NCBI GenBank assembly: GCA_020725175.1
Contig: DYFM01000009.1
Coordinates: 1 to 55,048 of the forward strand
DNA length: 55,048 nucleotides
Origin: Candidatus Paceibacter sp.
GTDB taxonomy: Bacteria; Patescibacteriota; Patescibacteriia; Magasanikbacterales; UBA922
Direction: 5' to 3'
Made by a program: the position numbers and the translations under genes. Position 1 is the first letter of the stretch. Each line of letters begins with the position of its first letter. The notes below the pieces were generated by a model. The model worked only from the letters and a program-made list of their open reading frames with translations, was not told where the DNA came from and did not search any database. This document shows positions 1,654 to 17,415 of this stretch, piece by piece.

Positions 1654-4584
1654 TTAATGAATGACCGTAATTGTCTCGGTGTCAATGACAACATCTGAAA
1701 GATTTTTGGCTTGGAATTCGAGATCATACATATTGTCTGCTTCCCAATTCCAACCACTAAAATCTATATAGTTGTGTTTGTAGTCTCCAGAAGGATCGTC
1801 TATGAGAGACGTATACGGACCACTCCCATTGACGCGCCAACCGAGGGTGTAATCGGACAAATCTCGTCCTTCCACATACGCTCGTACTTCTACCACACCC
1901 GAAACAGTACTTCCGTCAGTCGGTTGCAATACTACAATATCATCCGGTTCGACTGAAACATCTGTCCACGAAAGTTCTGCCACTGCTCCGCCGCCGTTTT
2001 CATAATACTCTACCTCAACAAGATGTACGCCGGCAGAAAGCTCTGCGGTAAAGATGTGTGTGGTTGGGGGTTGGTCGTAAAATTTATCCAAGACCACGTC
2101 ACCATCGATTTTTACCCGCATTCCATCATCGGTCCTTGCGGTAAACTGATGCGTTCCGCTCGAGAACATAAAGTTACCGGCCCATGCAACAGAAAATGTA
2201 TCCGGAGCAATGGACGCATCCGGTGAACCACCGCCCCAATCAAAATCAATCATTGGATCATTGCGAACCACTTTAAGGTCTGTGAAGTTTTGGTTGTCGT
2301 AGTAGCAGCCGGTAAATGTTTCACTTCCCGGAACTCCACAGCTTGGCACCACCCCGGCTTTTTCCCAGGACAGTTTGGCAACCGCATCACCACCATGTTC
2401 ATAATATTTCACTTCGATCATATGTGTTCCACTCGTCATTGTTTCATTGAACGTATACGTTGTAGCTGATTGATCAAAGTATTTATCCAGTACCAAGACT
2501 CCATCAATCCATATTTGCATTCCATCATCCGTTACAGCGGTAAATGTATATTCCGCGGCATCAAACGTGAAGTTTCCTTTCCAATGCGCCGAGAATGTAT
2601 CCGGTTGAACTGCCGGATCTGGTGAACCACCGCCCCAATCATTGTTAATCGTCGGATCGGTGCGAACAACGGCTAGATTGGTAAAGTCTTGATTGTCGTA
2701 ATAACACGCGGTAAACGCTCCACTCGCCGCCGGACCACAAACCAGCCCACCGCTACTTGAGACCGTAAAAGTTGTCCCAACATTATCCCAATGATACAGG
2801 GCGGACCAATCGCTCGCAAACACACCAAGTTTCACCTGATATTCTCCCGGAGTTATGGGCGCACTGAGATTCCACACCACTTCTTTGGCAACTCCGGCCA
2901 ACAAATCAGCAGGCACAATCTGCTGGTCCACCATCACATCGGAACTATTGTAGAGCTCAAGATCAATGTTGGCGTTCAAGAGCGTTTGATTCGATGTAAT
3001 CATAGCCGTAACTTCGACCGGATCACCAGCTGTATAACTAGCCGCGTCTGAGGTGATCGTATCATCAATCATGAGATCCCCCATCATTTCCCATGACAAT
3101 TGCGCCACCGCATCACCTTCATTTTCGTAATACTTCACCTCAATCAAGTGTTCTCCGGCCAAATCCTCCGTAAACTCATACACAGTTTCCGGTTGGTCAA
3201 AATACTTATCGAGTAGGAGGACGCCGTCAATGTATACTTGCATTCCGTCATCTGTTATAGCGGTAAATTTGTACGTTCCGGTTGCAAAAGTAAAGATTCC
3301 TTTCCACACAACCGAAAACGTATCCGGTTCCACTGACGAATCCGGAGAACCCATACCGACATCCATGTTTACGGCTGGTTCTGTTTGAACTACTTGAAGA
3401 TCAGTAACATCCATGTTGTTGTAATAGCACGCGGTAAATGCTTCTGTACCAGGAGCCCCACACAGCGGACCAACCGGTGGTTCAAGTTCCCAAGAAAGTT
3501 TTGCTACCGACTTACCGAGATTTTCATAATACTTTACTTCAATTAGATGTTCTCCCGCAGTCATTTCATACGGAAACTGGTACTCCGTCTCTGCTTGATT
3601 GAAATACTTATCAAGAACCATTACCCCATCAACATATACCTGCATTCCGTCATCGGTTACTGCGGTAAAATTGTACGTTCCACTACTAAAGGTAAATTCA
3701 CCTTTCCAAACGACAGAAAATGTATTTGGATCAATAGCCGGATCAGGTGAACCGGTCGCAAAGTTGAAGTTAATTTCACTATCAGTTCTTACTACAACCA
3801 AATCAGTGTGATCTGAATTGTTGTAATAACAACCGGTAAACGCGTTTGTTGCCGGACCAGAACATACCAATGGTAATGGAATGACAGGTTCTGGTACCTC
3901 TGGCACCACGTTGGTAGGTATTTCCTCCTCACTCTCTTCATTCCCCTCCTCTTCTTGTTGAGTTGTATCTTCACACACAAGTTCTGTCTTTACCCAGTTC
4001 ATACTCGCCACGGAAAGATGCAATTGACTTTTTCCGGTTTTTGGCAAAAGAAACAAAATGTGTTGCAATGATTCAGCGGTAAACGCTGGTGAAGAAAAAT
4101 GGCTCAATGGTACTGTGACTACCACATCAGTATCACTGATGATAGAGGCATCTACCGGAACAATCACCGAAGCGCCGGCAGTCCATTCATTATCATAAAA
4201 CTGCAACGATACTGGGGCTTCTCCCAAATCTCCTTGCAGCACCTCACCGTGTAATGTGAGTTCCAATGAATGATACATGGAAATATCCATTGATGAATCA
4301 AAAGTAAATCGAACATACCCTTGATCATTTGCATCCCACGCACCTAATGTCGCGGTAAATGACCCAACATCAGCCTGGGTAACAGTTGATGTAGTTAAAC
4401 CATTTTGCACCACAGTTTCCGGCAATTGAACCGGAGTTTTAACCTCAGAGGCAACCGGATTTTCACATCCCGGCTCTTCCACCGCTTGTACTGTCTGGGG
4501 TGGATTAAACAGAAACGTTTGCGCAAGGACCATAGCGCTTGCGACAAAGAAAAACAATGTTTTTCTGGTAACTTCGTATACCAT
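1654..4584 (-). CDS. Secreted/surface protein with four PA14 domains plus beta-sandwich (CBM/Ig-like) regions
   Basis: 976 aa with an N-terminal signal-like segment. Four ~125-aa repeats AFT(G/A)CYY..TDDGM..H.IEV.YYE..G..VA.LSW, each keeping the PA14 DDG motif. Confidence 0.85.
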   Translation of the reverse strand: MVYEVTRKTLFFFVASAMVLAQTFLFNPPQTVQAVEEPGCENPVASEVKTPVQLPETVVQNGLTTSTVTQADVGSFTATLGAWDANDQGYVRFTFDSSMDISMYHSLELTLHGEVLQGDLGEAPVSLQFYDNEWTAGASVIVPVDASIISDTDVVVTVPLSHFSSPAFTAESLQHILFLLPKTGKSQLHLSVASMNWVKTELVCEDTTQQEEEGNEESEEEIPTNVVPEVPEPVIPLPLVCSGPATNAFTGCYYNNSDHTDLVVVRTDSEINFNFATGSPDPAIDPNTFSVVWKGEFTFSSGTYNFTAVTDDGMQVYVDGVMVLDKYFNQAETEYQFPYEMTAGEHLIEVKYYENLGKSVAKLSWELEPPVGPLCGAPGTEAFTACYYNNMDVTDLQVVQTEPAVNMDVGMGSPDSSVEPDTFSVVWKGIFTFATGTYKFTAITDDGMQVYIDGVLLLDKYFDQPETVYEFTEDLAGEHLIEVKYYENEGDAVAQLSWEMMGDLMIDDTITSDAASYTAGDPVEVTAMITSNQTLLNANIDLELYNSSDVMVDQQIVPADLLAGVAKEVVWNLSAPITPGEYQVKLGVFASDWSALYHWDNVGTTFTVSSSGGLVCGPAASGAFTACYYDNQDFTNLAVVRTDPTINNDWGGGSPDPAVQPDTFSAHWKGNFTFDAAEYTFTAVTDDGMQIWIDGVLVLDKYFDQSATTYTFNETMTSGTHMIEVKYYEHGGDAVAKLSWEKAGVVPSCGVPGSETFTGCYYDNQNFTDLKVVRNDPMIDFDWGGGSPDASIAPDTFSVAWAGNFMFSSGTHQFTARTDDGMRVKIDGDVVLDKFYDQPPTTHIFTAELSAGVHLVEVEYYENGGGAVAELSWTDVSVEPDDIVVLQPTDGSTVSGVVEVRAYVEGRDLSDYTLGWRVNGSGPYTSLIDDPSGDYKHNYIDFSGWNWEADNMYDLEFQAKNLSDVVIDTETITVIH

Positions 4585-4747
4585 AGGCGTATAGTTAATG
4601 ATACACGACCGTCTGAATGTTGAGATGGATAATCACCACACTGGTGATTGGTGGATTGCATATGTATTGCTACCACCTGTATGTACTATAACCATCTCAG
4701 CAATTAATGCAAGTACCAATCTACAACGCCCGAAACAGTTGCTTTGT

Positions 4748-9106: not shown

Positions 9107-10471
9107 TTATTGTTCTTCAGATCCAAAATCTTCATCTCTCTGGCGTCTTCCGGCTGCCATAGCCAATCCTAGAAGCGCTGCTCCAAAACCAAGTACGAGC
9201 CAAGTTCGGACGCGGCTGAATGTTGGTAGTAAACTCTTTTCCAAGGGGTTATTATCCTGTTTATCATTTCGATCATCACCATCAGTATCCATTTTCAATG
9301 GATCCGTGCCAAGTGTTCGTTCTTCTTTGTCCGTCAAACCATCCCCGTCAGTATCTTTACTTTGCGGATCTGTTCCCAGTGCCCGCTCTTCTTCGTCACT
9401 CAGTCCATCATTATCATCATCCGGATCCGCTTCATTTCCTGTTCCATCAAGGTCCGTATCTGCCCATTCTTTTGGATCAAGGGGAAATAAATCTAAAAAG
9501 TCATCAAATCCGTCGCCATCGGTATCTTTTTTTAATGGACTAATACCTTGAATAACTTCACTACCATCTTCCACCCCATCGTCATCAGTATCAGCTTTGG
9601 ATGGATCTGTTCCACGGGTCTGCTCTTCCGTATCGGTCAAACCATCATCATCAGAATCAGTTTTTCCGGGTTGCAACCCCAGTCGCACTTCTTCCGCATC
9701 TGATATTCCGTCTCCATCGGAATCAGCTTTTCTTGGATCACTGCCATATTGATATTCTTCGGCATCAGTAAGTCCGTCTCCATCAGTATCTGAATTCAAC
9801 GGATCACTCCCAAACACAACTTCATCACTATCCGGAAGCCCATCATTATCATCATCCGGATCACTTGCATCTCCTATTCCATCATTGTCCGCATCCGACC
9901 AATTGTGAGGATCTAGCGGAAACAAATCTCGATCATCAGCGTACCCATCGCCATCAGTATCTTTTTTTAATGGATCAGTTTTTTTCTGCTGCTCCTCAAT
10001 ATCACTCACACCATCACCATCATCATCTTCATCAGTACTATTTCCAATCCCATCTGCATCCGTATCTTGCTCAATGGATATTGTTCTTTCAGTAACATAC
10101 CCACCGGCATCTTTTGGAAGTACAGTAGGTTTCAAAGCATTATCGGCCGCACTCGGGTTTTTGATTTCAGCGCGAAACACCTGCTCACCCTCGGGCAACG
10201 TAAACTCAACCCATACTTGCCGAGCTTGTTCATAGCCCAAATTTTTTACTACTGCTTTTCCTATTTCTTTATCATGATTATAAAACACCACGTCAGCGGA
10301 AAAAAACGGCACCTCATTATTGACAACCACCGTATACACTTTCACCGTCTCTCCGGCAAACGCATGTGAATTTGATAACCAAATTCCATCAGATACCACA
10401 AAAGCATGTGCTTGTGCTGGAAGAAAAAGAATGGTAAAGATGGTACTAAGAAAAAGGAGTGATTTGCGCAT
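9107..10471 (-). CDS. Surface protein with many thrombospondin type 3-like (DxDxDG) repeats and a C-terminal TM anchor
   Basis: More than 12 DxDxDG(L/I)xD units, signal peptide from MRKSLLF (ATG 10471), C-terminal TM followed by RRQR. The ORF-track extension to 10540 comes from a DNA repeat. Confidence 0.85.
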   Translation of the reverse strand: MRKSLLFLSTIFTILFLPAQAHAFVVSDGIWLSNSHAFAGETVKVYTVVVNNEVPFFSADVVFYNHDKEIGKAVVKNLGYEQARQVWVEFTLPEGEQVFRAEIKNPSAADNALKPTVLPKDAGGYVTERTISIEQDTDADGIGNSTDEDDDGDGVSDIEEQQKKTDPLKKDTDGDGYADDRDLFPLDPHNWSDADNDGIGDASDPDDDNDGLPDSDEVVFGSDPLNSDTDGDGLTDAEEYQYGSDPRKADSDGDGISDAEEVRLGLQPGKTDSDDDGLTDTEEQTRGTDPSKADTDDDGVEDGSEVIQGISPLKKDTDGDGFDDFLDLFPLDPKEWADTDLDGTGNEADPDDDNDGLSDEEERALGTDPQSKDTDGDGLTDKEERTLGTDPLKMDTDGDDRNDKQDNNPLEKSLLPTFSRVRTWLVLGFGAALLGLAMAAGRRQRDEDFGSEEQ

Positions 10472-10488
10472 GATAAGATGAAAAGTTT

Positions 10489-10552
10489 GCAAGTTGGCAG
10501 GTTGGCAAGTTGGCAAGTTCGCAAGTTGGCAAGTTGACAAGTTGGCTAGTTA
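10489..10552. repeat. Octamer tandem array (GCAAGTTG)x8, degenerate
   Basis: Units GCAAGTTG GCAGGTTG GCAAGTTG GCAAGTTC GCAAGTTG GCAAGTTG ACAAGTTG GCTAGTTA. Confidence 0.92.
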
Positions 10553-10859: not shown

Positions 10860-11780
10860 TTATTTCAAAGTTTCAACATCCAATTCTTCGCCATCTGTCT
10901 TCACTAGTATATCACCTTGTGTGTCTGTGCGCCACACCTCACTTCCGACCCGTTCGACACGGCGAATGACGCGCAATGACGGATGACCAAACTTATTCCC
11001 CAAACCGGCCGAAAATATCGTATGCAGTGGCGTTGTTTTTTCTATCATTTCAGGAATTGATGAACCGGCACTTCCATGATGTCCGGCTTTTAGCACTTCT
11101 ACATCTAGGATATCCGGATATGATTCGACCAAGTATTCCTCTAACTCTGCTTCCGAATCAGCGAGAAGTAATGTGTCAACATTTCCGTAAGTTAACTTTA
11201 GGATAATTGAACTATTATTGGAGCCGGTATCTTTTTCATGCCCCGGAACATTCGGATTCCGAGCAATTGAGTGGTCCGGATAAAGAAAATGTACAGTCGT
11301 ACTGGCAATTTCCCATGTTTCCGGTTGAGCTAATTCATAATACGCGTTTCCTTCCGCATGTGCCGCTTCCCAAAACGTTTGCCACATATCACTTTGATCT
11401 TTCATATACCCATTGTAGATAATGTTTCCAATCTCAAACCGCTTGATGACATCAACACAGCCACCATAATGATCAAGATCTGGATGCGTCACTACTAAAT
11501 AATCAAGTGTTCGATCATAATACGGCATCACCCGACCCAACGCTTCCAAAATCCGTGCATCAATCGCGCAGTCAACCAACATTTGTCGACCATCCGGAAA
11601 GACAATAAATGTTGCGTCCCCTTGTCCGATATCAAGAAACGTCATTTGTAGCGTTCCGGTAGTTGTTTCTAAAGAAGAATCAAGTGGTTGCGATTCATTT
11701 TGTTCTTTACTTTCGAGAATAAAAAGAAGTACGATTATCACGAATAAAAGGGAAAGAAGAATGAGAAACAGTTTTTTCAT
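10860..11780 (-). CDS. ComEC/Rec2-type metallo-beta-lactamase-fold nuclease domain as a stand-alone protein
   Basis: FLDIGQGDA, THPDLDHYGG, NNSSI, DVEVLKAGHHGS and FGHPS motifs; N-terminal TM anchor. Confidence 0.9.
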   Translation of the reverse strand: MKKLFLILLSLLFVIIVLLFILESKEQNESQPLDSSLETTTGTLQMTFLDIGQGDATFIVFPDGRQMLVDCAIDARILEALGRVMPYYDRTLDYLVVTHPDLDHYGGCVDVIKRFEIGNIIYNGYMKDQSDMWQTFWEAAHAEGNAYYELAQPETWEIASTTVHFLYPDHSIARNPNVPGHEKDTGSNNSSIILKLTYGNVDTLLLADSEAELEEYLVESYPDILDVEVLKAGHHGSAGSSIPEMIEKTTPLHTIFSAGLGNKFGHPSLRVIRRVERVGSEVWRTDTQGDILVKTDGEELDVETLK

Positions 11781-11792
11781 AGCTTAAAAGTA

Positions 11793-11874
11793 ATAGGAAC
11801 ACGGATTGAACGGATATAACGAATACTAACGGATCCGTTTTAATCTGTTTCATCCGTCAAATCCGTGTTTCTAT
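11793..11874. repeat. 82-bp imperfect palindrome of AACGGAT-type ~9-nt units centred on GGATCC
   Basis: The 41-bp arms match at 31 of 41 positions; the sequence closely resembles the GxxExxY-flanking inverted repeats. Confidence 0.9.
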
Positions 11875-11878
11875 CAAA

Positions 11879-13456
11879 TCAATACTCGACCCCCTTATCT
11901 TCGACCGCATCACTTACACTCACTCCTGTCATATATATCGGCACTGGAACACCTTTTTTCTTCACCCCTTTCTGATACTGCCAAATCCAGTATCCAAGCA
12001 GTCCATATAATCCCATCATTCCCCACACCGGCACCGTCAAATCAATCGCCGCAAAGGACAAATCTGAAAACCATCGCACCACTGTCACAATATACGCCAT
12101 TCCCGCCCAAGCCACCCACGCAATAAGCTGACCGAGTGGTTGAAGTATGGCCGAGATTATCACGGCAAAAAACCCAATTCCCATGATAAATGGCAAAGCC
12201 CAAAGAATAAGCACATTGACCATGGGCGCAACAGTGGACAGACGACCAAACTGAAACAAAATTAACGGTAACGTAGAGAGTATCGCGGCAAAGGTCGAAA
12301 TCAAGGTTTCACGCATTCCCAATACCTCCGGTACACGGACAAACCACCGCCGAATCAGCGGCGCAACATAAACTAATCCAAGGGTAGATAAAAATGATAG
12401 CTGAAATCCGGCGTCATATATCAACACAAATGGATTGTGAAGTGTCATCAAAACCGCTGTCAAAACAAGTACATTACCAACCCGAGATAAGCGACCAATT
12501 TGTCGAGTCAACAACACAATGATACCCATGATTCCGGCCCGCACCACCGATGCGCTTGCTCCGGCAAATATTACAAACAGTACTATTCCGGTCACAACAA
12601 CCCAAAACGCTTTTCTTCTTGGGATATACAAATTTACGCAAATACCAATAAAAATAGTCGCAATCAAGGTAATATTATATCCGGATATCGCCACAATATG
12701 CGTTACCCCGGTTCGACTAAATTGTTCATTCAGGCTTCCAAGTCCACCTCGGTACCCATACAAAAGTCCGGCCATAAAGCTCGCATACGGTTCATGCCAC
12801 AAAAGATTGATCTTCAAAGCAAACCAGTCTTTTAATCCCAAAATTCCTCGCATAAACACCGATCCTTCTCCTTCCCCCACTTTTACCATGCTCATTGGCT
12901 CACAAATACTAAACACTCCAAACCGTGCCAAATATTTATCATATTGAAAATCCTCAATCGGCCCCGGCTGTTTCAAATTACAATTCATTTCCAAAACATC
13001 CCCATATGCATACCGCGGATACAAACCTCCTTTAATGTATACGCTGCCGTTCAAATCAAAGTCGTCATTTTTTATGTTTTGTTTGTTTTGAATGTTTTTA
13101 ATATTTACAATATACCTCACCCCATCCATTCGCACATCCGGCTCTGCTCGAACATAGCCCACTAGAGACACTTTCTGTCCGTTATAATAAGAAACGTGTC
13201 GAGAAGAATCTGTCGGGTAAGCCAGGACATATCGAACAAGCCCGAGAAAAAAACAAAACAGTAAGACAACGATAAAACGACTCTTTGGTTCTTTCCAAAA
13301 AATTATAAACAATGTAATGAACAAGAAAAGTGAAAAATAAAGATGGTGATAAGAAATCTGGATATCAACTATAGAAATTGTTCCGACGCCAAGTAAAAAA
13401 GAAAAACAAAACGCGAGAAACGTTTTGCTTTTAAATTGTATGATCCCCCTGAGCAT
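11879..13456 (-). CDS. comEC: ComEC/Rec2 competence DNA-uptake membrane protein (OB plus Competence domain)
   Basis: GVTHIVAISGYNI, ASVVRAGIMG, DAGFQLSFLSTLG motifs; many TM helices. Confidence 0.93.
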   Translation of the reverse strand: MLRGIIQFKSKTFLAFCFSFLLGVGTISIVDIQISYHHLYFSLFLFITLFIIFWKEPKSRFIVVLLFCFFLGLVRYVLAYPTDSSRHVSYYNGQKVSLVGYVRAEPDVRMDGVRYIVNIKNIQNKQNIKNDDFDLNGSVYIKGGLYPRYAYGDVLEMNCNLKQPGPIEDFQYDKYLARFGVFSICEPMSMVKVGEGEGSVFMRGILGLKDWFALKINLLWHEPYASFMAGLLYGYRGGLGSLNEQFSRTGVTHIVAISGYNITLIATIFIGICVNLYIPRRKAFWVVVTGIVLFVIFAGASASVVRAGIMGIIVLLTRQIGRLSRVGNVLVLTAVLMTLHNPFVLIYDAGFQLSFLSTLGLVYVAPLIRRWFVRVPEVLGMRETLISTFAAILSTLPLILFQFGRLSTVAPMVNVLILWALPFIMGIGFFAVIISAILQPLGQLIAWVAWAGMAYIVTVVRWFSDLSFAAIDLTVPVWGMMGLYGLLGYWIWQYQKGVKKKGVPVPIYMTGVSVSDAVEDKGVEY

Positions 13457-13460
13457 ACAG

Positions 13461-13953
13461 AATAGACCGCGAATTAAACGGATGTAACGAATAAAAACGG
13501 ATCTTTTGAAAGTGACTTTTTCAGCTTATTTTCATACACCCTTCTCCGAAACTCTGGTTTTAATCCAAAATTAAACAAAAGACCAACTTCCATGGAAGTG
13601 GCCTTTAAATAGTTTAAGAGCTGTGCTTCATGTTCTAAGCACAAAGATTCAGCAGCTTTAAGTTCAATTATTATCCTCTCCTCAACGACAATATCAGCAA
13701 AATACTCACCAACTTTTATTCCCAAGTCAAACACTTGAATTGGCACCTGCCTTCTACCATGAATATTCATTCTCTGCAATTCATATATCAAAGAGTTTTC
13801 ATACACTTTCTCCAAAAAACCATACCCAAGTCTATTGTATACATTGTAATACGCACGTATAATTTTACCACTAAGCTCCTCCTCTAGCATAGAAATAAAG
13901 TTATAAAACTAATTCGTTATTATTCGTTACATCCGTTTAATTCGCGGTCTATT
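13461..13953. mobile_element. Putative GxxExxY cassette bounded by perfect 34-bp inverted repeats
   Basis: 13461-13494 AATAGACCGCGAATTAAACGGATGTAACGAATAA is the exact reverse complement of 13920-13953. The repeat is certain; mobility is inferred. Confidence 0.7.
13474..13890 (-). CDS. GxxExxY protein (PD-(D/E)xK nuclease-like fold)
   Basis: 138 aa. GFLEKVY is the GxxExxY motif; ADIVVEERIIIELKA gives D...ELK; QLLNYLK..G.L.NFG. Confidence 0.93.
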   Translation of the reverse strand: MLEEELSGKIIRAYYNVYNRLGYGFLEKVYENSLIYELQRMNIHGRRQVPIQVFDLGIKVGEYFADIVVEERIIIELKAAESLCLEHEAQLLNYLKATSMEVGLLFNFGLKPEFRRRVYENKLKKSLSKDPFLFVTSV

Positions 13954-13968
13954 ATACCATCAAATCCT

Positions 13969-16900
13969 TCAAATCACAATCGACACCAACTTTCCTTTCA
14001 CATAAATCACCTTCTTCGGTTCCTTCCCTTCCAACCACTTCGCTACATTTTCCTGCTTGAGTGCCAACTGTTTCACTTCTTCTTCATCAACATCAACGGC
14101 AACATCAATCGTCCCTCGCAATTTTCCATTTACCTGAATGGCAATTGTTACATTGTCAATTGTAAGGTACTGTTCATCACACATCGGCCAACCGGAACGA
14201 GCGATAGATTGCCCATACCCAAGCTGCTGCCACAGTTCCTCTGCAATATGTGGCGCAAATGGTGCCAAAAGCTGAATCAGTGATGCGTATGCTGATTTAG
14301 AAATAGTCTCCGCTTTCATCCACTCATTGGTCAATTCCATCATTTTAGCAATTGCCGTGTTAAACCGCATTTCATCAATATCTTCACTAACTTTTTTTAT
14401 GGTTTGATGTAATGTCTGTAAAACCTTCTTTTCGTTTTCAGCACCTTCTTTTACTTTTCCTTGCAAATTCCATACCCGATCCAAAAACCGTCGTACCCCA
14501 ATCAACCCGTTGATATCCCATTCCACTGCCTGATCAAATGGACCCATAAACATAATATATGTCCGCAAAGTATCAGCACCAAATTGCTCTACCATTTCAT
14601 CCGGATTCACCACATTTCCTTTACTCTTACTCATCTTTTCTCCACCTTTTGCAAGAATCATGCCATGACTGGTTCGTTTGTTGTATGGTTCCTTAAACGG
14701 CACCACACCGATGTCGTACAAAAATTGATTCCAAAAACGGGAGTACAATAAATGTAAAACAACGTGCTCCATACCACCATTGTACCAATCTACCGGTCCC
14801 CAATATTTCATTGCTTCAGGAGATGCCAAGGCCTCAGAATTATTCGGATCCATGTAGCGTAAAAAGTACCAACTTGATCCGGCCCAGTTTGGCATAGTGT
14901 CAGTTTCTCGCCGCGCTTCTCCGCCACATTTCGGACAAGTCGTCTTTACCCAGTCTTCCATCGCAGCCAGCGGTGATTCCCCTGTATCTGTTGGTTGATA
15001 TTTTTCTACTTGCGGCAAGGTTAATGGCAATTGATCTTCTGGAAGCGGAATCCAGCCTGTTGGTTCAACATTTTTTTGAACAATAGGTTCATTTGTTGAA
15101 CAAAAATGACTTACCTCAGGCTCAGCAATAATAATATTTGCCCCCAACTTCGTATGAAAAATTTTCTCTTGACCTTGGGGGACAACCGGATGGTCTTTAT
15201 CGACTATTACGACCCACTCTTTTGCCAATGAACGAATATCATCAAAACTAAATTTCCAATCACAGCTTTTTTCAACCGGCTCACGGCGTTTATCGTTAAA
15301 AGTAGGCTCTGTAAAACAGTCTACCAACACTACTTTTTCTACTGACTCCTGAAGATTTACTTGTTCTAAAAGTTTCATGACTACTGCCCCACCTAAACTA
15401 TGAGCAACAACAATAGTGTTTTTGTCTAACACACACTTCTGTTTCAAATATGCAACCTGTTCTTCAATATTTGGTGCGTCTGAATTTGGAAGAGATGGGT
15501 AAGAAACCTCATGCCCTTTATCTTCCAGACTCTTCTTAAGTTCAATAAAAAAATCTTCTCGTGCAGTCGGATTGAAACCATGAACAAATACGTATTTATA
15601 CTTTTTATTTTCACACTGATCGCACTTAACCAACGGAATCGGCTCCCCCCAATATCTTTGTCGAGAAAATACCCAATCTCGGAGCTTGAACTGTACTTTT
15701 CGTTTTCCCACACCTTTTTCTTCAAGCCACTGAATCATGGTTTCCTTTGCTTGGGGTGTTTTTAGATCATTTAGAAATTCTGAATTGATGGTAATACCTT
15801 CGTCAGAAAAACAATCATTCTTCATGGATAATTGTCGCCAAACATATTTGAAATTCGGTAAATTTAAAAACTCAACCATACTATCTTTTTCTATCCAAAC
15901 AGCTGTATGATTTTTTATTTCTTCCTCATTGGGTTTTTCATACTCACCATCTATCAACTCAAAATATAATCCATGACCAATTGCATATCGATTTTCATCT
16001 TTATGACGTGCAAAAAAAACATTATGGTTTTCTCCACCGACAGATCGCACAAATTTAATATTCTTATATCCTGTTTCTTCACGAATTTCACGCATTGCCG
16101 CTTCCACAATATCCTCACCCTTCTCTACTCCACCAATAATACCAGTGTGCCAACCAAATTTCTCCCAATCAAGACATAAATATGTATCATCTTGCCAATG
16201 TTTTACTATCGCATTAATAGTGTGCCTTTTTAACACCGGTTTATCAGGTCGATACGCATCATCAACTGTATCATTAGCATGAAAAAAGGCCACCACTTGT
16301 TTAATTGGAATATTATATTTTTTAGCAAACTCATAATCCCTCTCATCATGCGCCGGCACCGCCATAATCGCTCCGGTTCCATACGTAGCCAGCACATAAT
16401 CAGCCACAAAAATTGGAATTTCTTCCTCTGTCGCCGGATTGATCGCTTTCAAGCCTTTCAATTCAACCCCGGTCTTTTCTTTCTGCAATTCCGTCCGCTC
16501 CAAATCAGACTTTAACCTTGCCTTCTCAACATAGGTATGTACTTCGTCAACATTTTTAATTGTTCCTTGTTCCTTGTTCCTTGTTCCTTCGAGGAGCTGT
16601 GCGACGAGTTCATGTTCCGGCGCCACAACCATGTACGTCACCCCAAACAAGGTATCTGGACGAGTCGTAAAAACTTCAAGCTCACCAATTTCGCCTTTAT
16701 TTGAACTTAAAACTTTAAACTTTATACTTGCTCCCGAAGAGCGCCCTATCCAATTTTCCTGCTGTGTCCGTGCCATAGGGATATAATCCACTTCATTCAA
16801 TCCATCAAGTAAACTATCGGCGTATTTGGTAATGGCGAGCATCCACTGTTCTTTATCGCGTTTTTCTACCGGACCACCACAGCGTTCACACGTTCCATCG

Positions 16901-17415
16901 ACCACTTCTTCATTAGCGAGACCAATCTTACAGTTCAAGCACCAATTAATCGGCATGTTTTTCTTGTAGGCTAACCCATGTTTGTAGAGTTGCAAAAAAA
17001 TCCACTGCGTCCATTTGTAGTACGCCGGATCAGTCGTATCCACCATGCGTGACCAGTCAAACCCAAAACCGAGCGACTTGAGTTGGCGGGTAAAATTGGC
17101 AATATTTTCAGCCGTCACCTCAGCCGGAGGTCGTCCGGTTTTAATCGCGTAATTTTCTGTCGGAAGTCCAAACGCGTCAAACCCGATCGGATAGAGAACA
17201 TTTTTTCCTTCCATTCTTTTTTTACGAGAAATCACATCCATGGCAGTAAATGGCCGCGGATGCCCAACATGAAGTCCTGCTCCCGATGGATACGGAAACT
17301 CAATCAGCGCGTAAAATTTTTCTTTACTTTCATCAAGATCAGCACGATACGTTTGCTGTTCATCCCAATGCTTTTGCCATTTTGGCTCTATTTCTTTTGG
17401 GTTATAAGGTTGCAT
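13969..17415 (-). CDS. leuS: Leucyl-tRNA synthetase, enlarged (1148 aa) by inserted Nudix and alpha/beta-hydrolase domains
   Basis: HVGH (HIGH), KMSKS, FTTRPDTLFG, GTGAIMAVPAHDERD, LRDWVFSRQRYWGEPIP and C-terminal IQVNGKLRG motifs. Confidence 0.97.
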   Translation of the reverse strand: MQPYNPKEIEPKWQKHWDEQQTYRADLDESKEKFYALIEFPYPSGAGLHVGHPRPFTAMDVISRKKRMEGKNVLYPIGFDAFGLPTENYAIKTGRPPAEVTAENIANFTRQLKSLGFGFDWSRMVDTTDPAYYKWTQWIFLQLYKHGLAYKKNMPINWCLNCKIGLANEEVVDGTCERCGGPVEKRDKEQWMLAITKYADSLLDGLNEVDYIPMARTQQENWIGRSSGASIKFKVLSSNKGEIGELEVFTTRPDTLFGVTYMVVAPEHELVAQLLEGTRNKEQGTIKNVDEVHTYVEKARLKSDLERTELQKEKTGVELKGLKAINPATEEEIPIFVADYVLATYGTGAIMAVPAHDERDYEFAKKYNIPIKQVVAFFHANDTVDDAYRPDKPVLKRHTINAIVKHWQDDTYLCLDWEKFGWHTGIIGGVEKGEDIVEAAMREIREETGYKNIKFVRSVGGENHNVFFARHKDENRYAIGHGLYFELIDGEYEKPNEEEIKNHTAVWIEKDSMVEFLNLPNFKYVWRQLSMKNDCFSDEGITINSEFLNDLKTPQAKETMIQWLEEKGVGKRKVQFKLRDWVFSRQRYWGEPIPLVKCDQCENKKYKYVFVHGFNPTAREDFFIELKKSLEDKGHEVSYPSLPNSDAPNIEEQVAYLKQKCVLDKNTIVVAHSLGGAVVMKLLEQVNLQESVEKVVLVDCFTEPTFNDKRREPVEKSCDWKFSFDDIRSLAKEWVVIVDKDHPVVPQGQEKIFHTKLGANIIIAEPEVSHFCSTNEPIVQKNVEPTGWIPLPEDQLPLTLPQVEKYQPTDTGESPLAAMEDWVKTTCPKCGGEARRETDTMPNWAGSSWYFLRYMDPNNSEALASPEAMKYWGPVDWYNGGMEHVVLHLLYSRFWNQFLYDIGVVPFKEPYNKRTSHGMILAKGGEKMSKSKGNVVNPDEMVEQFGADTLRTYIMFMGPFDQAVEWDINGLIGVRRFLDRVWNLQGKVKEGAENEKKVLQTLHQTIKKVSEDIDEMRFNTAIAKMMELTNEWMKAETISKSAYASLIQLLAPFAPHIAEELWQQLGYGQSIARSGWPMCDEQYLTIDNVTIAIQVNGKLRGTIDVAVDVDEEEVKQLALKQENVAKWLEGKEPKKVIYVKGKLVSIVI
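16560..16587. repeat. Perfect heptamer repeat (TTGTTCC)x4 inside leuS
   Basis: Encodes GTRNKEQGT in frame. Confidence 0.95.

Follow-up and report, generated by a model that had tools for sequence, protein, structure and literature searches.

In the REPIN-RAYT systems (PMC3116915, PMC3337134, PMC5581495, 10.1101/2021.07.10.451892), a small enzyme gene is bracketed by copies of a short repeat in inverted orientation; the same repeat recurs between genes elsewhere in the genome as hairpin doublets without a gene, and the enzyme gene is kept under purifying selection and inherited vertically at a fixed site over long periods. These features recur in a cassette situated between leuS and comEC in the 55,048-nt contig DYFM01000009.1 of Candidatus Paceibacter sp. 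(assembly GCA_020725175.1; this whole stretch of DNA is called the window below), where a gene of the GxxExxY family is enclosed by two inverted repeat arms. The enzymes are different, RAYTs being HUH/Y1 (IS200/IS605-type) transposases, while GxxExxY is a predicted RecB/Cas4-like PD-(D/E)XK nuclease. The repeats are different as well, since the arms consist of four 9-10-nt C-N-GAT units and a terminal AATAG, and not of a single REP palindrome. Moreover, the GxxExxY gene is often positioned exactly at the hairpin dyad and tied to the orientation of the host operon, and just one gene-less hairpin is present in the 55-kb window.

The intervening sequences (IVS) of 23S rRNA from Coxiella and Leptospira that bear an open reading frame (ORF), encoding S23p, also place an ORF of about 120-140 aa inside terminal inverted repeats; ORF-less hairpin versions of them exist, and they are described as selfish (PMC4990558). 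The cassette, in contrast, is located between protein-coding genes and not in rRNA, its product is a PD-(D/E)XK protein and not the four-helix-bundle S23p, and there is no sign of selection for pairing at the RNA level (neither a G·U bias nor register-specific covariation). As defining features both of the REPIN-RAYT systems and of the rRNA IVS were tested for and not found in the cassette, it was assigned to neither group.

Correia and ERIC elements are imperfect palindromes of ~85-130 bp, located between operon genes and co-transcribed, with no known transposase, and the same holds for the hairpins considered here. However, full-length copies of the latter contain a candidate cognate enzyme gene, their arms are arrays of units, and the family crosses many phyla. 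The ends of Tn7 and Mu combine a conserved terminal motif with repeated subterminal sites, inverted at the two ends, and the TnsA protein of Tn7 is a PD-(D/E)XK enzyme. Both the inverted arrangement of terminal and subterminal sites and a nuclease of the restriction-enzyme fold are seen here, but the element is only ~0.5 kb long and has no DDE strand-transfer protein, no target-site duplication was found, and nothing points to recent transposition. The cassette also resembles terminal inverted repeat (TIR) transposons and miniature inverted-repeat transposable elements (MITEs) in that its ends are inverted repeats with conserved termini; unlike these, it lacks a transposase domain (none was found in GxxExxY by the domain search), paralogues are at most 81% identical, and the arms are unique in the window apart from those of the diverged gene-less hairpin. 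The only trait in common with integron cassettes is a promoterless, co-oriented ORF: repeats are present on both sides of it, their termini AATAGAAC / GTTCTATT do not fit the RYYYAAC / GTTRRRY attC cores, and no integrase is found among the ORFs adjoining the cassette. As in the case of homing endonuclease genes, the ORF occupies the centre of a target that is uninterrupted elsewhere, namely in gene-less hairpins, where the fourth units abut. In kind, the cassette can be placed among palindromic repeat families that have a cognate enzyme gene, and the literature searched contained no description of its repeats.

GxxExxY genes and their unit-array arms

The repeat search in the window revealed two arms of 42 nt, 95% complementary and 409 nt apart (Table 1), of which 34 nt (13461-13494 and 13920-13953) are exact reverse complements. 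With up to three mismatches allowed, the 33-nt arm pattern occurs at these two places alone in the 55 kb, while shuffled sequences are expected to yield none. Read on the gene strand, the arm starts with AATAG, followed by the units ACCGCGAAT, TAAACGGAT, GTAACGAAT and AATAACGAAT. The single ORF between the arms is the 138-aa GxxExxY gene, whose stop codon (13474-13476) lies within the downstream (left) arm. The gap between the leuS stop codon (13969-13971) and the 5' arm is 15 nt, the gap between the 3' arm and the comEC ATG (13454-13456) is 4 nt, and all three genes are on the minus strand. Protein matches of the window point to a Candidatus Magasanikbacteria-like member of Patescibacteria. 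The first-pass annotation of the window had described the perfect 34-bp repeat, its composition of ~9-10-nt units, the sole enclosed gene with its stop codon in the left arm, and the two distances; all of these agree with the repeat search, the ORF and profile matches and the coordinates. Its statement that similar arms are present beside GxxExxY genes of other bacteria is strongly borne out as well, as follows from the survey of other loci.

GxxExxY genes are almost always flanked by, or located within, a hairpin composed of C-N-GAT unit arrays, and this is observed in many phyla. One genome per GTDB species was scanned, which yielded 80 GxxExxY loci (these and other loci are denoted by L numbers where they have to be told apart) from Patescibacteria, Bacteroidota, Ignavibacteria, Chloroflexota, Planctomycetota, Deltaproteobacteria, Cloacimonadota and others. 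Smith-Waterman inverted repeats between the 150 nt upstream of the gene and the region around and after its stop codon were compared with those in random placements of the same geometry at the same loci. The median score is 34 for 75 GxxExxY genes and 17 for the controls (99th percentile 28), i.e. this check, suggested together with the original description, places GxxExxY genes well above the controls. The nhmmer arm profile, which under-detects the AT-rich GAAT variant (L168, L169, L172), identifies 161 arms at 60 of the 80 loci and has no match in 518 kb of LeuS-selected control loci; at distances of more than 600 nt from the gene, contigs with GxxExxY have one arm per 13 kb. In the window the profile has exactly four matches, corresponding to the two arms of the cassette and the two arms of the gene-less hairpin.

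The arms follow a common plan, where a terminal (A/T)AATAG(A/C)AC is followed by four units with the core C-R-C-N-G-A-T at 9-9-10-nt spacing, and the two arms of each element face in opposite directions. Conservation across phyla is 91-100% at the GAT triplet and the C before it in each of the four units, and the N position and the spacers vary freely. The AATAG...CTATT termini are 95-100% conserved, and the outer terminus AATAG(A/C)AC together with the first unit is the most conserved part of the arm. The complementarity of the two arms has a median of 76% in 74 pairs, with the window cassette ranking first (95%). In the usual geometry, the 5' arm ends at the ATG or within a few nucleotides of it and the 3' arm overlaps the stop codon; an ORF standing at the dyad of a cassette starts directly next to the fourth unit and terminates inside the 3' arm. 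GxxExxY was the only cargo detected between arms, in a test biased by the choice of loci, as these were selected by GxxExxY, and no conserved functional neighbourhood of the gene was found across phyla.

A protein subclade with 73-90% identity (L012, L016, L019, L053), spanning Ignavibacteria and a Chitinophaga (Bacteroidota), has unusual TATGAT/TAAGAT inner units in common, which indicates that the gene and the arms travel together. Two paralogous hairpin-gene-hairpin units, 81% identical, are present at L073; their homology starts at AATAATGGAAC and ends at GTTCTATAA, and hence the arm termini are the ends of the repeated unit.

Gene-less hairpins, with arms 0-25 nt apart, are common; they are intergenic and mostly located between co-directional genes. 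The one in the window, 1.6 kb from the cassette and not mentioned in the first-pass annotation, consists of two four-unit arms whose inner ends meet at a GGATCC dyad (ATAGAAACACGGATTTGACGGATGAAACAGATTAAAACGGAT / CCGTTAGTATTCGTTATATCCGTTCAATCCGTGTTCCTAT), and folds at -36 kcal/mol (z -7) on either strand. L165 and L168 also have a hairpin at this site between comEC and the metallo-beta-lactamase (MBL)-fold gene, L166 has a decayed one, and L170 and L173 have none. The fourth units of the gene-less hairpins of L165, L168 and the window abut at a perfect palindrome (GAATTC or GGATCC), and in the cassettes of the same genomes the ORF stands exactly at the corresponding dyad. Further gene-less hairpins are found in L073, L028, L062, L070 and L082, while in L023 and L057 complete hairpins are present on both sides of the gene. 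L068 contains a tandem hairpin array (3786-4713) with a period of ~94 nt and GxxExxY in the loop of one member. The scan of viral contigs with the arm pattern returned a single contig (L163, IMG/VR), a phage-like 5.6-kb fragment with portal and major capsid genes; it carries four intergenic gene-less hairpins (233-327, 511-617, 1358-1484, 3548-3659) and no GxxExxY gene. BLAST of the consensus hairpin against plasmids gave one record, a Runella plasmid with the hairpin between two esterase genes.

Some arrangements deviate from this picture. On the Fusobacteria plasmid pZRK30-1 (L164), the GxxExxY gene lies between two sequences similar to the 3' arm (2905-2950, 3365-3415), in direct and not inverted orientation. 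The gene-less comEC/MBL hairpin of L165 (3889-3990) has a GC-rich mini-hairpin CCCCGCCAGTGAGGCGGGCAGGCG nested within its 3' arm, and the same gap in L171 (3690-4000) holds an apparently structured GC-rich element of ~300 nt in an otherwise AT-rich genome.

In 60 of 66 cases the GxxExxY gene is read in the same direction as the ORF upstream of it, and in 56 of 65 as the ORF downstream, and all 10 orthologous cassettes have one orientation. A median of 9.5 nt separates the upstream stop codon from the element, and a median of 16 nt lies between the element and the start codon that follows; in 11 cases the upstream stop codon overlaps the TAG/TAA of the terminal motif. The promoter and terminator scan gave counts not exceeding those in shuffled sequences, the one -10-like TATAAT at the leuS/arm junction being not significant. 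Judging by the geometry, the module appears to be promoterless and expressed by read-through from the host operon. No recombinase or integrase gene was seen among the ORFs adjacent to the cassette.

The GxxExxY protein and the history of the cassette

The window protein matches PF13366 (E 2.5e-38, 131.5 bits with the cut-off of 22) and TIGR04256 (E 1e-36, 125.8 bits with the cut-off of 35). In its motifs G24-x-x-E27-x-x-Y30, D66, E76-x-K78 and Q90-x-x-x-Y94, all the named residues are invariant across 59 homologues. We take the E...D...ExK...QxxxY set to be the motifs of RecB-family nucleases. The AlphaFold2 model (predicted local distance difference test, pLDDT, 89.7) has the alpha-beta-beta-beta-alpha-beta core of PD-(D/E)XK proteins, while the C-terminal tail DPFLFVTSV, encoded by the 3' arm, is predicted to be disordered (pLDDT <50). 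The best Foldseek matches are Cas4 SSO0001, the LHK and lambda exonucleases, MGME1 and Hjc, with the top similarity being modest (TM-score 0.57, ~20% identity). Cas4/RecB nucleases (PDB 4ic1; lambda exonuclease 1avq) thus provide the best structural matches and the same motif set, but GxxExxY comprises only ~125 aa, has no Fe-S cluster domain and is found in no CRISPR context. On the basis of the motifs and the model, GxxExxY is predicted to be a minimal RecB/Cas4-like PD-(D/E)XK nuclease.

The window GxxExxY has only a marginal match to Cas4 among the PADLOC defence models (E 0.03, well below significance) and none among the PHROGs phage families, and the PDB sequence search gave nothing meaningful (the best being 3ff4, E 0.68). 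The family is large, comprising 13,240 clusters at 50% identity (E<=1e-3, tandem fusions included). In the literature searched, nothing was found on the function or repeats of GxxExxY/PF13366, except for its listing as 'Unknown' in the 2012 survey of PD-(D/E)XK families.

Loci of relatives were sought with the MBL-fold protein as the query. Empty leuS-comEC junctions, which the first-pass annotation had proposed to look for, exist: in two more distant relatives the distance between the leuS stop codon and the comEC ATG is 3 nt (L084) and 29 nt (L124), with no cassette and no visible replacement. Since leuS directly adjoins comEC there, the cassette is an insertion. The leuS-GxxExxY-comEC-MBL order, together with the arms, is retained in ten Magasanikbacteria lineages (the window, L002, L165, L166, L168-L173). 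Identity to the window in the nine relatives is 68-88% for GxxExxY, 48-87% for the LeuS C-terminus, 52-65% for ComEC and 52-64% for the MBL-fold protein. Of these proteins, GxxExxY is the best conserved in seven relatives; the other two are L171, where the LeuS C-terminus is slightly ahead, and L002, where the two are about level. As the cassette is present at the exact site in ten lineages, and GxxExxY is conserved beyond its neighbours, the cassette is ancient and vertically inherited, and the sequence identities indicate that it has been kept between leuS and comEC under purifying selection through deep divergence.

The closest relative, L002, with 88% identity of the protein and the same site, has arms that are only 71% complementary, their outer 15 nt being still perfect via one compensatory change. 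The simplest reading is that the perfect repeat in the window was produced by recent arm-to-arm conversion in the window lineage, and not by recent transposition. No near-identical copies at different sites were found (81% identity between the L073 paralogues, ~70% between L023 and L058); other genomes have several GxxExxY paralogues. The ends inspected in orthologues, gene-less hairpins and the L073 paralogues show no consistent direct repeat, and their flanks are A/T-rich. The initial view of the cassette as a self-contained mobile element is thus retained in one part, as the cassette is discrete and absent in L084 and L124, and not supported in the other, as ten lineages have it at the same site and it has not been recently mobile; nor is the perfect repeat a sign of recent mobility, given the arms of L002.

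In one more Patescibacteria relative (L086, 4560-5350), the leuS-comEC junction contains a DUF559 gene (PF04480, 131 aa), which encodes a small PD-(D/E)XK nuclease and is located inside palindromic repeats of its own, CCCTCTCCTTTATAAGGAGAGGG / CCTTCTCCTTTGTAAGGAGAAGG, present in eight copies with a period of ~109 nt. It looks like a parallel nuclease-plus-hairpin module; nothing on the function or repeats of DUF559 with palindromic repeats was found in the literature searched.

Possible modes of recognition and spread

Mismatches between the arms were analyzed on the transcribed strand. Among 340 mismatched positions in 49 arm pairs, there are 73 of the G·U type and 66 of the A·C type (p=0.61). 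Complementarity is 73-78% between partner arms and 69% between arms of unrelated loci. Concordance of partner arms at the variable R and N positions is not raised in the facing unit compared with the others, and it equals the concordance between units within one arm. In L168, L170 and L173 units are swapped or shifted between arms, and same-side arms of different hairpins from one locus are 82% alike, exceeding partner arms. The mismatch, concordance, swap and same-side results together mean that the unit motif and the whole-hairpin copy are conserved, and not base pairing. This pattern is expected for protein recognition of DNA sites combined with copying of whole elements, and argues for it over a selected RNA stem. 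The predicted stems are stable (z -6.7 for the cassette, z from -4 to -16 for the hairpins, on either strand). Rfam gave no credible family in the window and 40 GxxExxY loci at the gathering threshold, or in the region with E up to 10, and identified no rRNA in the window or the 40 loci.

The explanation that we favour, with confidence falling a little short of even, is that the cassette represents the gene-carrying form of a widespread hairpin repeat family, in a nuclease-repeat pairing analogous to REPIN/RAYT, with a proposed mechanism. GxxExxY would be a metal-dependent DNA nuclease of the RecB/Cas4 type recognizing C-N-GAT arrays in duplex or in hairpin/cruciform DNA. The arms would be its cis-acting sites, and the gene-less hairpins would be non-autonomous derivatives served in trans, as REPINs are by a single-copy RAYT. 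The module would have no promoter of its own and depend on read-through expression inside host operons, which would account for its orientation and for the way it is squeezed in between the stop codon of one gene and the start codon of the next. Spread would be rare and occur at the DNA level, with cleavage at the element followed by copying via host repair or recombination. The binding or cutting of units by GxxExxY, the dependence of gene-less hairpins on it and the way in which copies arise are the parts that we infer.

Several points weigh against this explanation. The protein and the units are linked by association; a target-site duplication could not be defined from the inspected ends; near-identical copies at different sites were not found; and the 55 kb contain only one gene-less hairpin. 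To our knowledge, a nuclease alone has no strand-transfer activity. The window copy has stayed in place ever since the divergence of lineages with LeuS C-termini that are ~50% identical, and strong purifying selection with long vertical persistence would fit a function useful to the host as readily as a selfish one. Moreover, both arms are necessarily co-transcribed, and thus could have an effect at the RNA level.

A broader proposal is doubtful, though worth stating: GxxExxY proteins might be dedicated nucleases of undescribed, cross-phylum hairpin 'sequence symbionts', with DUF559 perhaps forming a parallel system. In such a class the arms would be arrays of units, the full-length copies would carry the gene at their dyad, and the copies lacking it would be served in trans; if real, the class would be mechanistically distinct from elements based on HUH and DDE enzymes or recombinases.

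PD-(D/E)XK enzymes commonly cut palindromes as dimers, and GxxExxY could be a homing-type parasite, which we consider unlikely. Its dimer would cut the hairpin dyad, the target being the palindrome at the junction of the innermost units, e.g. ACGGAT-CCGT or ACGAAT-TCGT (the hyphen marks the junction). The ORF would be copied in from a filled copy, with the arms serving as homology, and the filled site would be immune, as the ORF splits the target. The gene-less dyads of L165, L168 and the window, which are perfect palindromes with the cassette ORF exactly at this point, agree with such a scheme, as do the gene in the loop of one hairpin of the L068 tandem array and the genome-specific unit variants common to cassette arms and gene-less hairpins, which gene conversion would produce. 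However, cutting at the dyad leaves unexplained why AATAG(A/C)AC at the outer end and the first unit are conserved most, the arms provide just ~40 bp of imperfect homology, and many loci have the hairpin-gene-hairpin or another arrangement and not a gene in the loop. Besides, homing genes usually degenerate once fixed, whereas GxxExxY surpasses its neighbours in conservation over a long vertical history. A low probability is also assigned to an element acting at the RNA level, with the arms pairing in polycistronic mRNA and the long stem being cut by RNase III or occluding the start codon. It would release or throttle the GxxExxY message and uncouple leuS from comEC, and gene-less hairpins would be intra-operon processing or stabilizing signals, as is reported of Correia and ERIC elements. 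Co-orientation of ~90%, with no room for a separate promoter or terminator and, consequently, joint transcription of the arms, is consistent with this, as are the predicted stability of the stems (cassette z -6.7, hairpins z -4 to -16), the start codon at the inner end of the stem, the stop codon inside the 3' arm and one compensatory change between the window and L002 (CCGCG/CGCGG vs CCTCG/CGAGG). Nevertheless, G·U mismatches are not in excess over A·C ones, the median complementarity of partner arms is 76% while non-partner arms give 69%, covariation does not follow the register, L168, L170 and L173 show units swapped or shifted between arms, and the GAT triplets are kept as sequence on both arms, which a stem would not require; there is also no Rfam match, and the characterised members of the closest folds act on DNA. 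The G·U/A·C counts and the weak complementarity of partners, together with the lack of an rRNA context, argue as well against removal of the stem at the RNA level, one of the routes offered in the first-pass annotation.

The probability is lower still for a domesticated host function, where the unit arrays would be cooperative sites for GxxExxY or another host protein (e.g. in local DNA repair, recombination control, defence or chromosome organization), and mobility would be historical. In its favour, the site is occupied in ten small-genome Magasanikbacteria lineages, GxxExxY is more conserved than LeuS, ComEC and the MBL-fold protein, the family is very large (13,240 clusters at 50% identity), and RAYTs, the closest characterised parallel, are described as domesticated and vertically inherited (PMC5581495; 10.1101/2021.07.10.451892). 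At the same time, the gene has no conserved functional neighbourhood across phyla, the defence models give only the sub-significant Cas4 match and the phage families nothing, hairpins also occur on a phage-like contig and a plasmid, and related outgroups lack the cassette with no visible replacement. Finally, an invertible DNA switch, also suggested at the outset, where recombination between the perfect arms would flip the gene, is effectively excluded: its sole support is the 34-nt perfect inverted repeat in the window, while all ten orthologues have one orientation, ~90% of GxxExxY genes elsewhere share the direction of their neighbours, the adjacent ORFs include no recombinase gene, and most arm pairs are too divergent for homologous inversion.

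For GxxExxY/PDDEXK_3, a very large family with no assigned function, the arms provide a concrete candidate substrate. The module is carried inside host operons and can be retained at a single site while its hosts, Patescibacteria with reduced genomes, diverge deeply, and the findings suggest a second long-lived partnership of an enzyme with hairpin repeats besides REPIN-RAYT, in this case with a RecB/Cas4-like nuclease. There is also a consequence for annotation, as the hairpins, located at operon junctions, extend across stop codons and provide ORFs with spurious C-terminal tails.

Features of the window

Table 1. Features of the cassette and its surroundings (positions in the window; a dot in the strand column denotes no strand)
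Feature	Position	Strand	Remarks
leuS, upstream host gene	13969..17415	-	
5' (upstream) arm	13912..13953	-	arm-profile match 13915-13953; AATAG 13953-13949; ACCGCGAAT 13948-13940; TAAACGGAT 13939-13931; GTAACGAAT 13930-13922; AATAACGAAT 13921-13912
GxxExxY / PDDEXK_3 ORF	13474..13890	-	Pfam and NCBIfam matches
3' (downstream) arm	13461..13502	-	reverse complement of the 5' arm; arm-profile match
comEC (DUF4131 and Competence domains), downstream host gene	11879..13456	-	
Gene-less hairpin in the comEC/MBL gap	11792..11875	.	arm-profile matches 11796-11834 and 11833-11869
MBL-fold (ComEC C-terminal-like) gene, downstream of the gene-less hairpin	10860..11780	-	

The host genes have some features of their own. 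LeuS of the window comprises 1148 aa and contains insertions of NUDIX and serine-hydrolase/alpha-beta-hydrolase domains, which are also found, in varying combinations, in the orthologues from L165, L166, L170, L171 and L172. ComEC is encoded by two ORFs (10860-13456), one for the DUF4131 and Competence domains (525 aa) and the other for the metallo-beta-lactamase domain (306 aa). This split is common to all relatives examined, and extra genes are present between the two halves in L172 (a methyltransferase) and L169 (a 222-aa unknown protein).

A terminator-like hairpin, AAAAGCAAAACGTTTCTCGCGTTTTGTTTTT (13402-13432, minus strand), is located within the first codons of comEC. It is kept at the nucleotide level in L002 and also in L084, where ComEC is only 40% identical, and may be either a regulatory stem or simply the trace of a conserved peptide. 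Further along the window, positions 9107-10540 encode a 477-aa secreted or anchored protein with aspartate-rich calcium-binding repeats of the thrombospondin-type-3-like kind.

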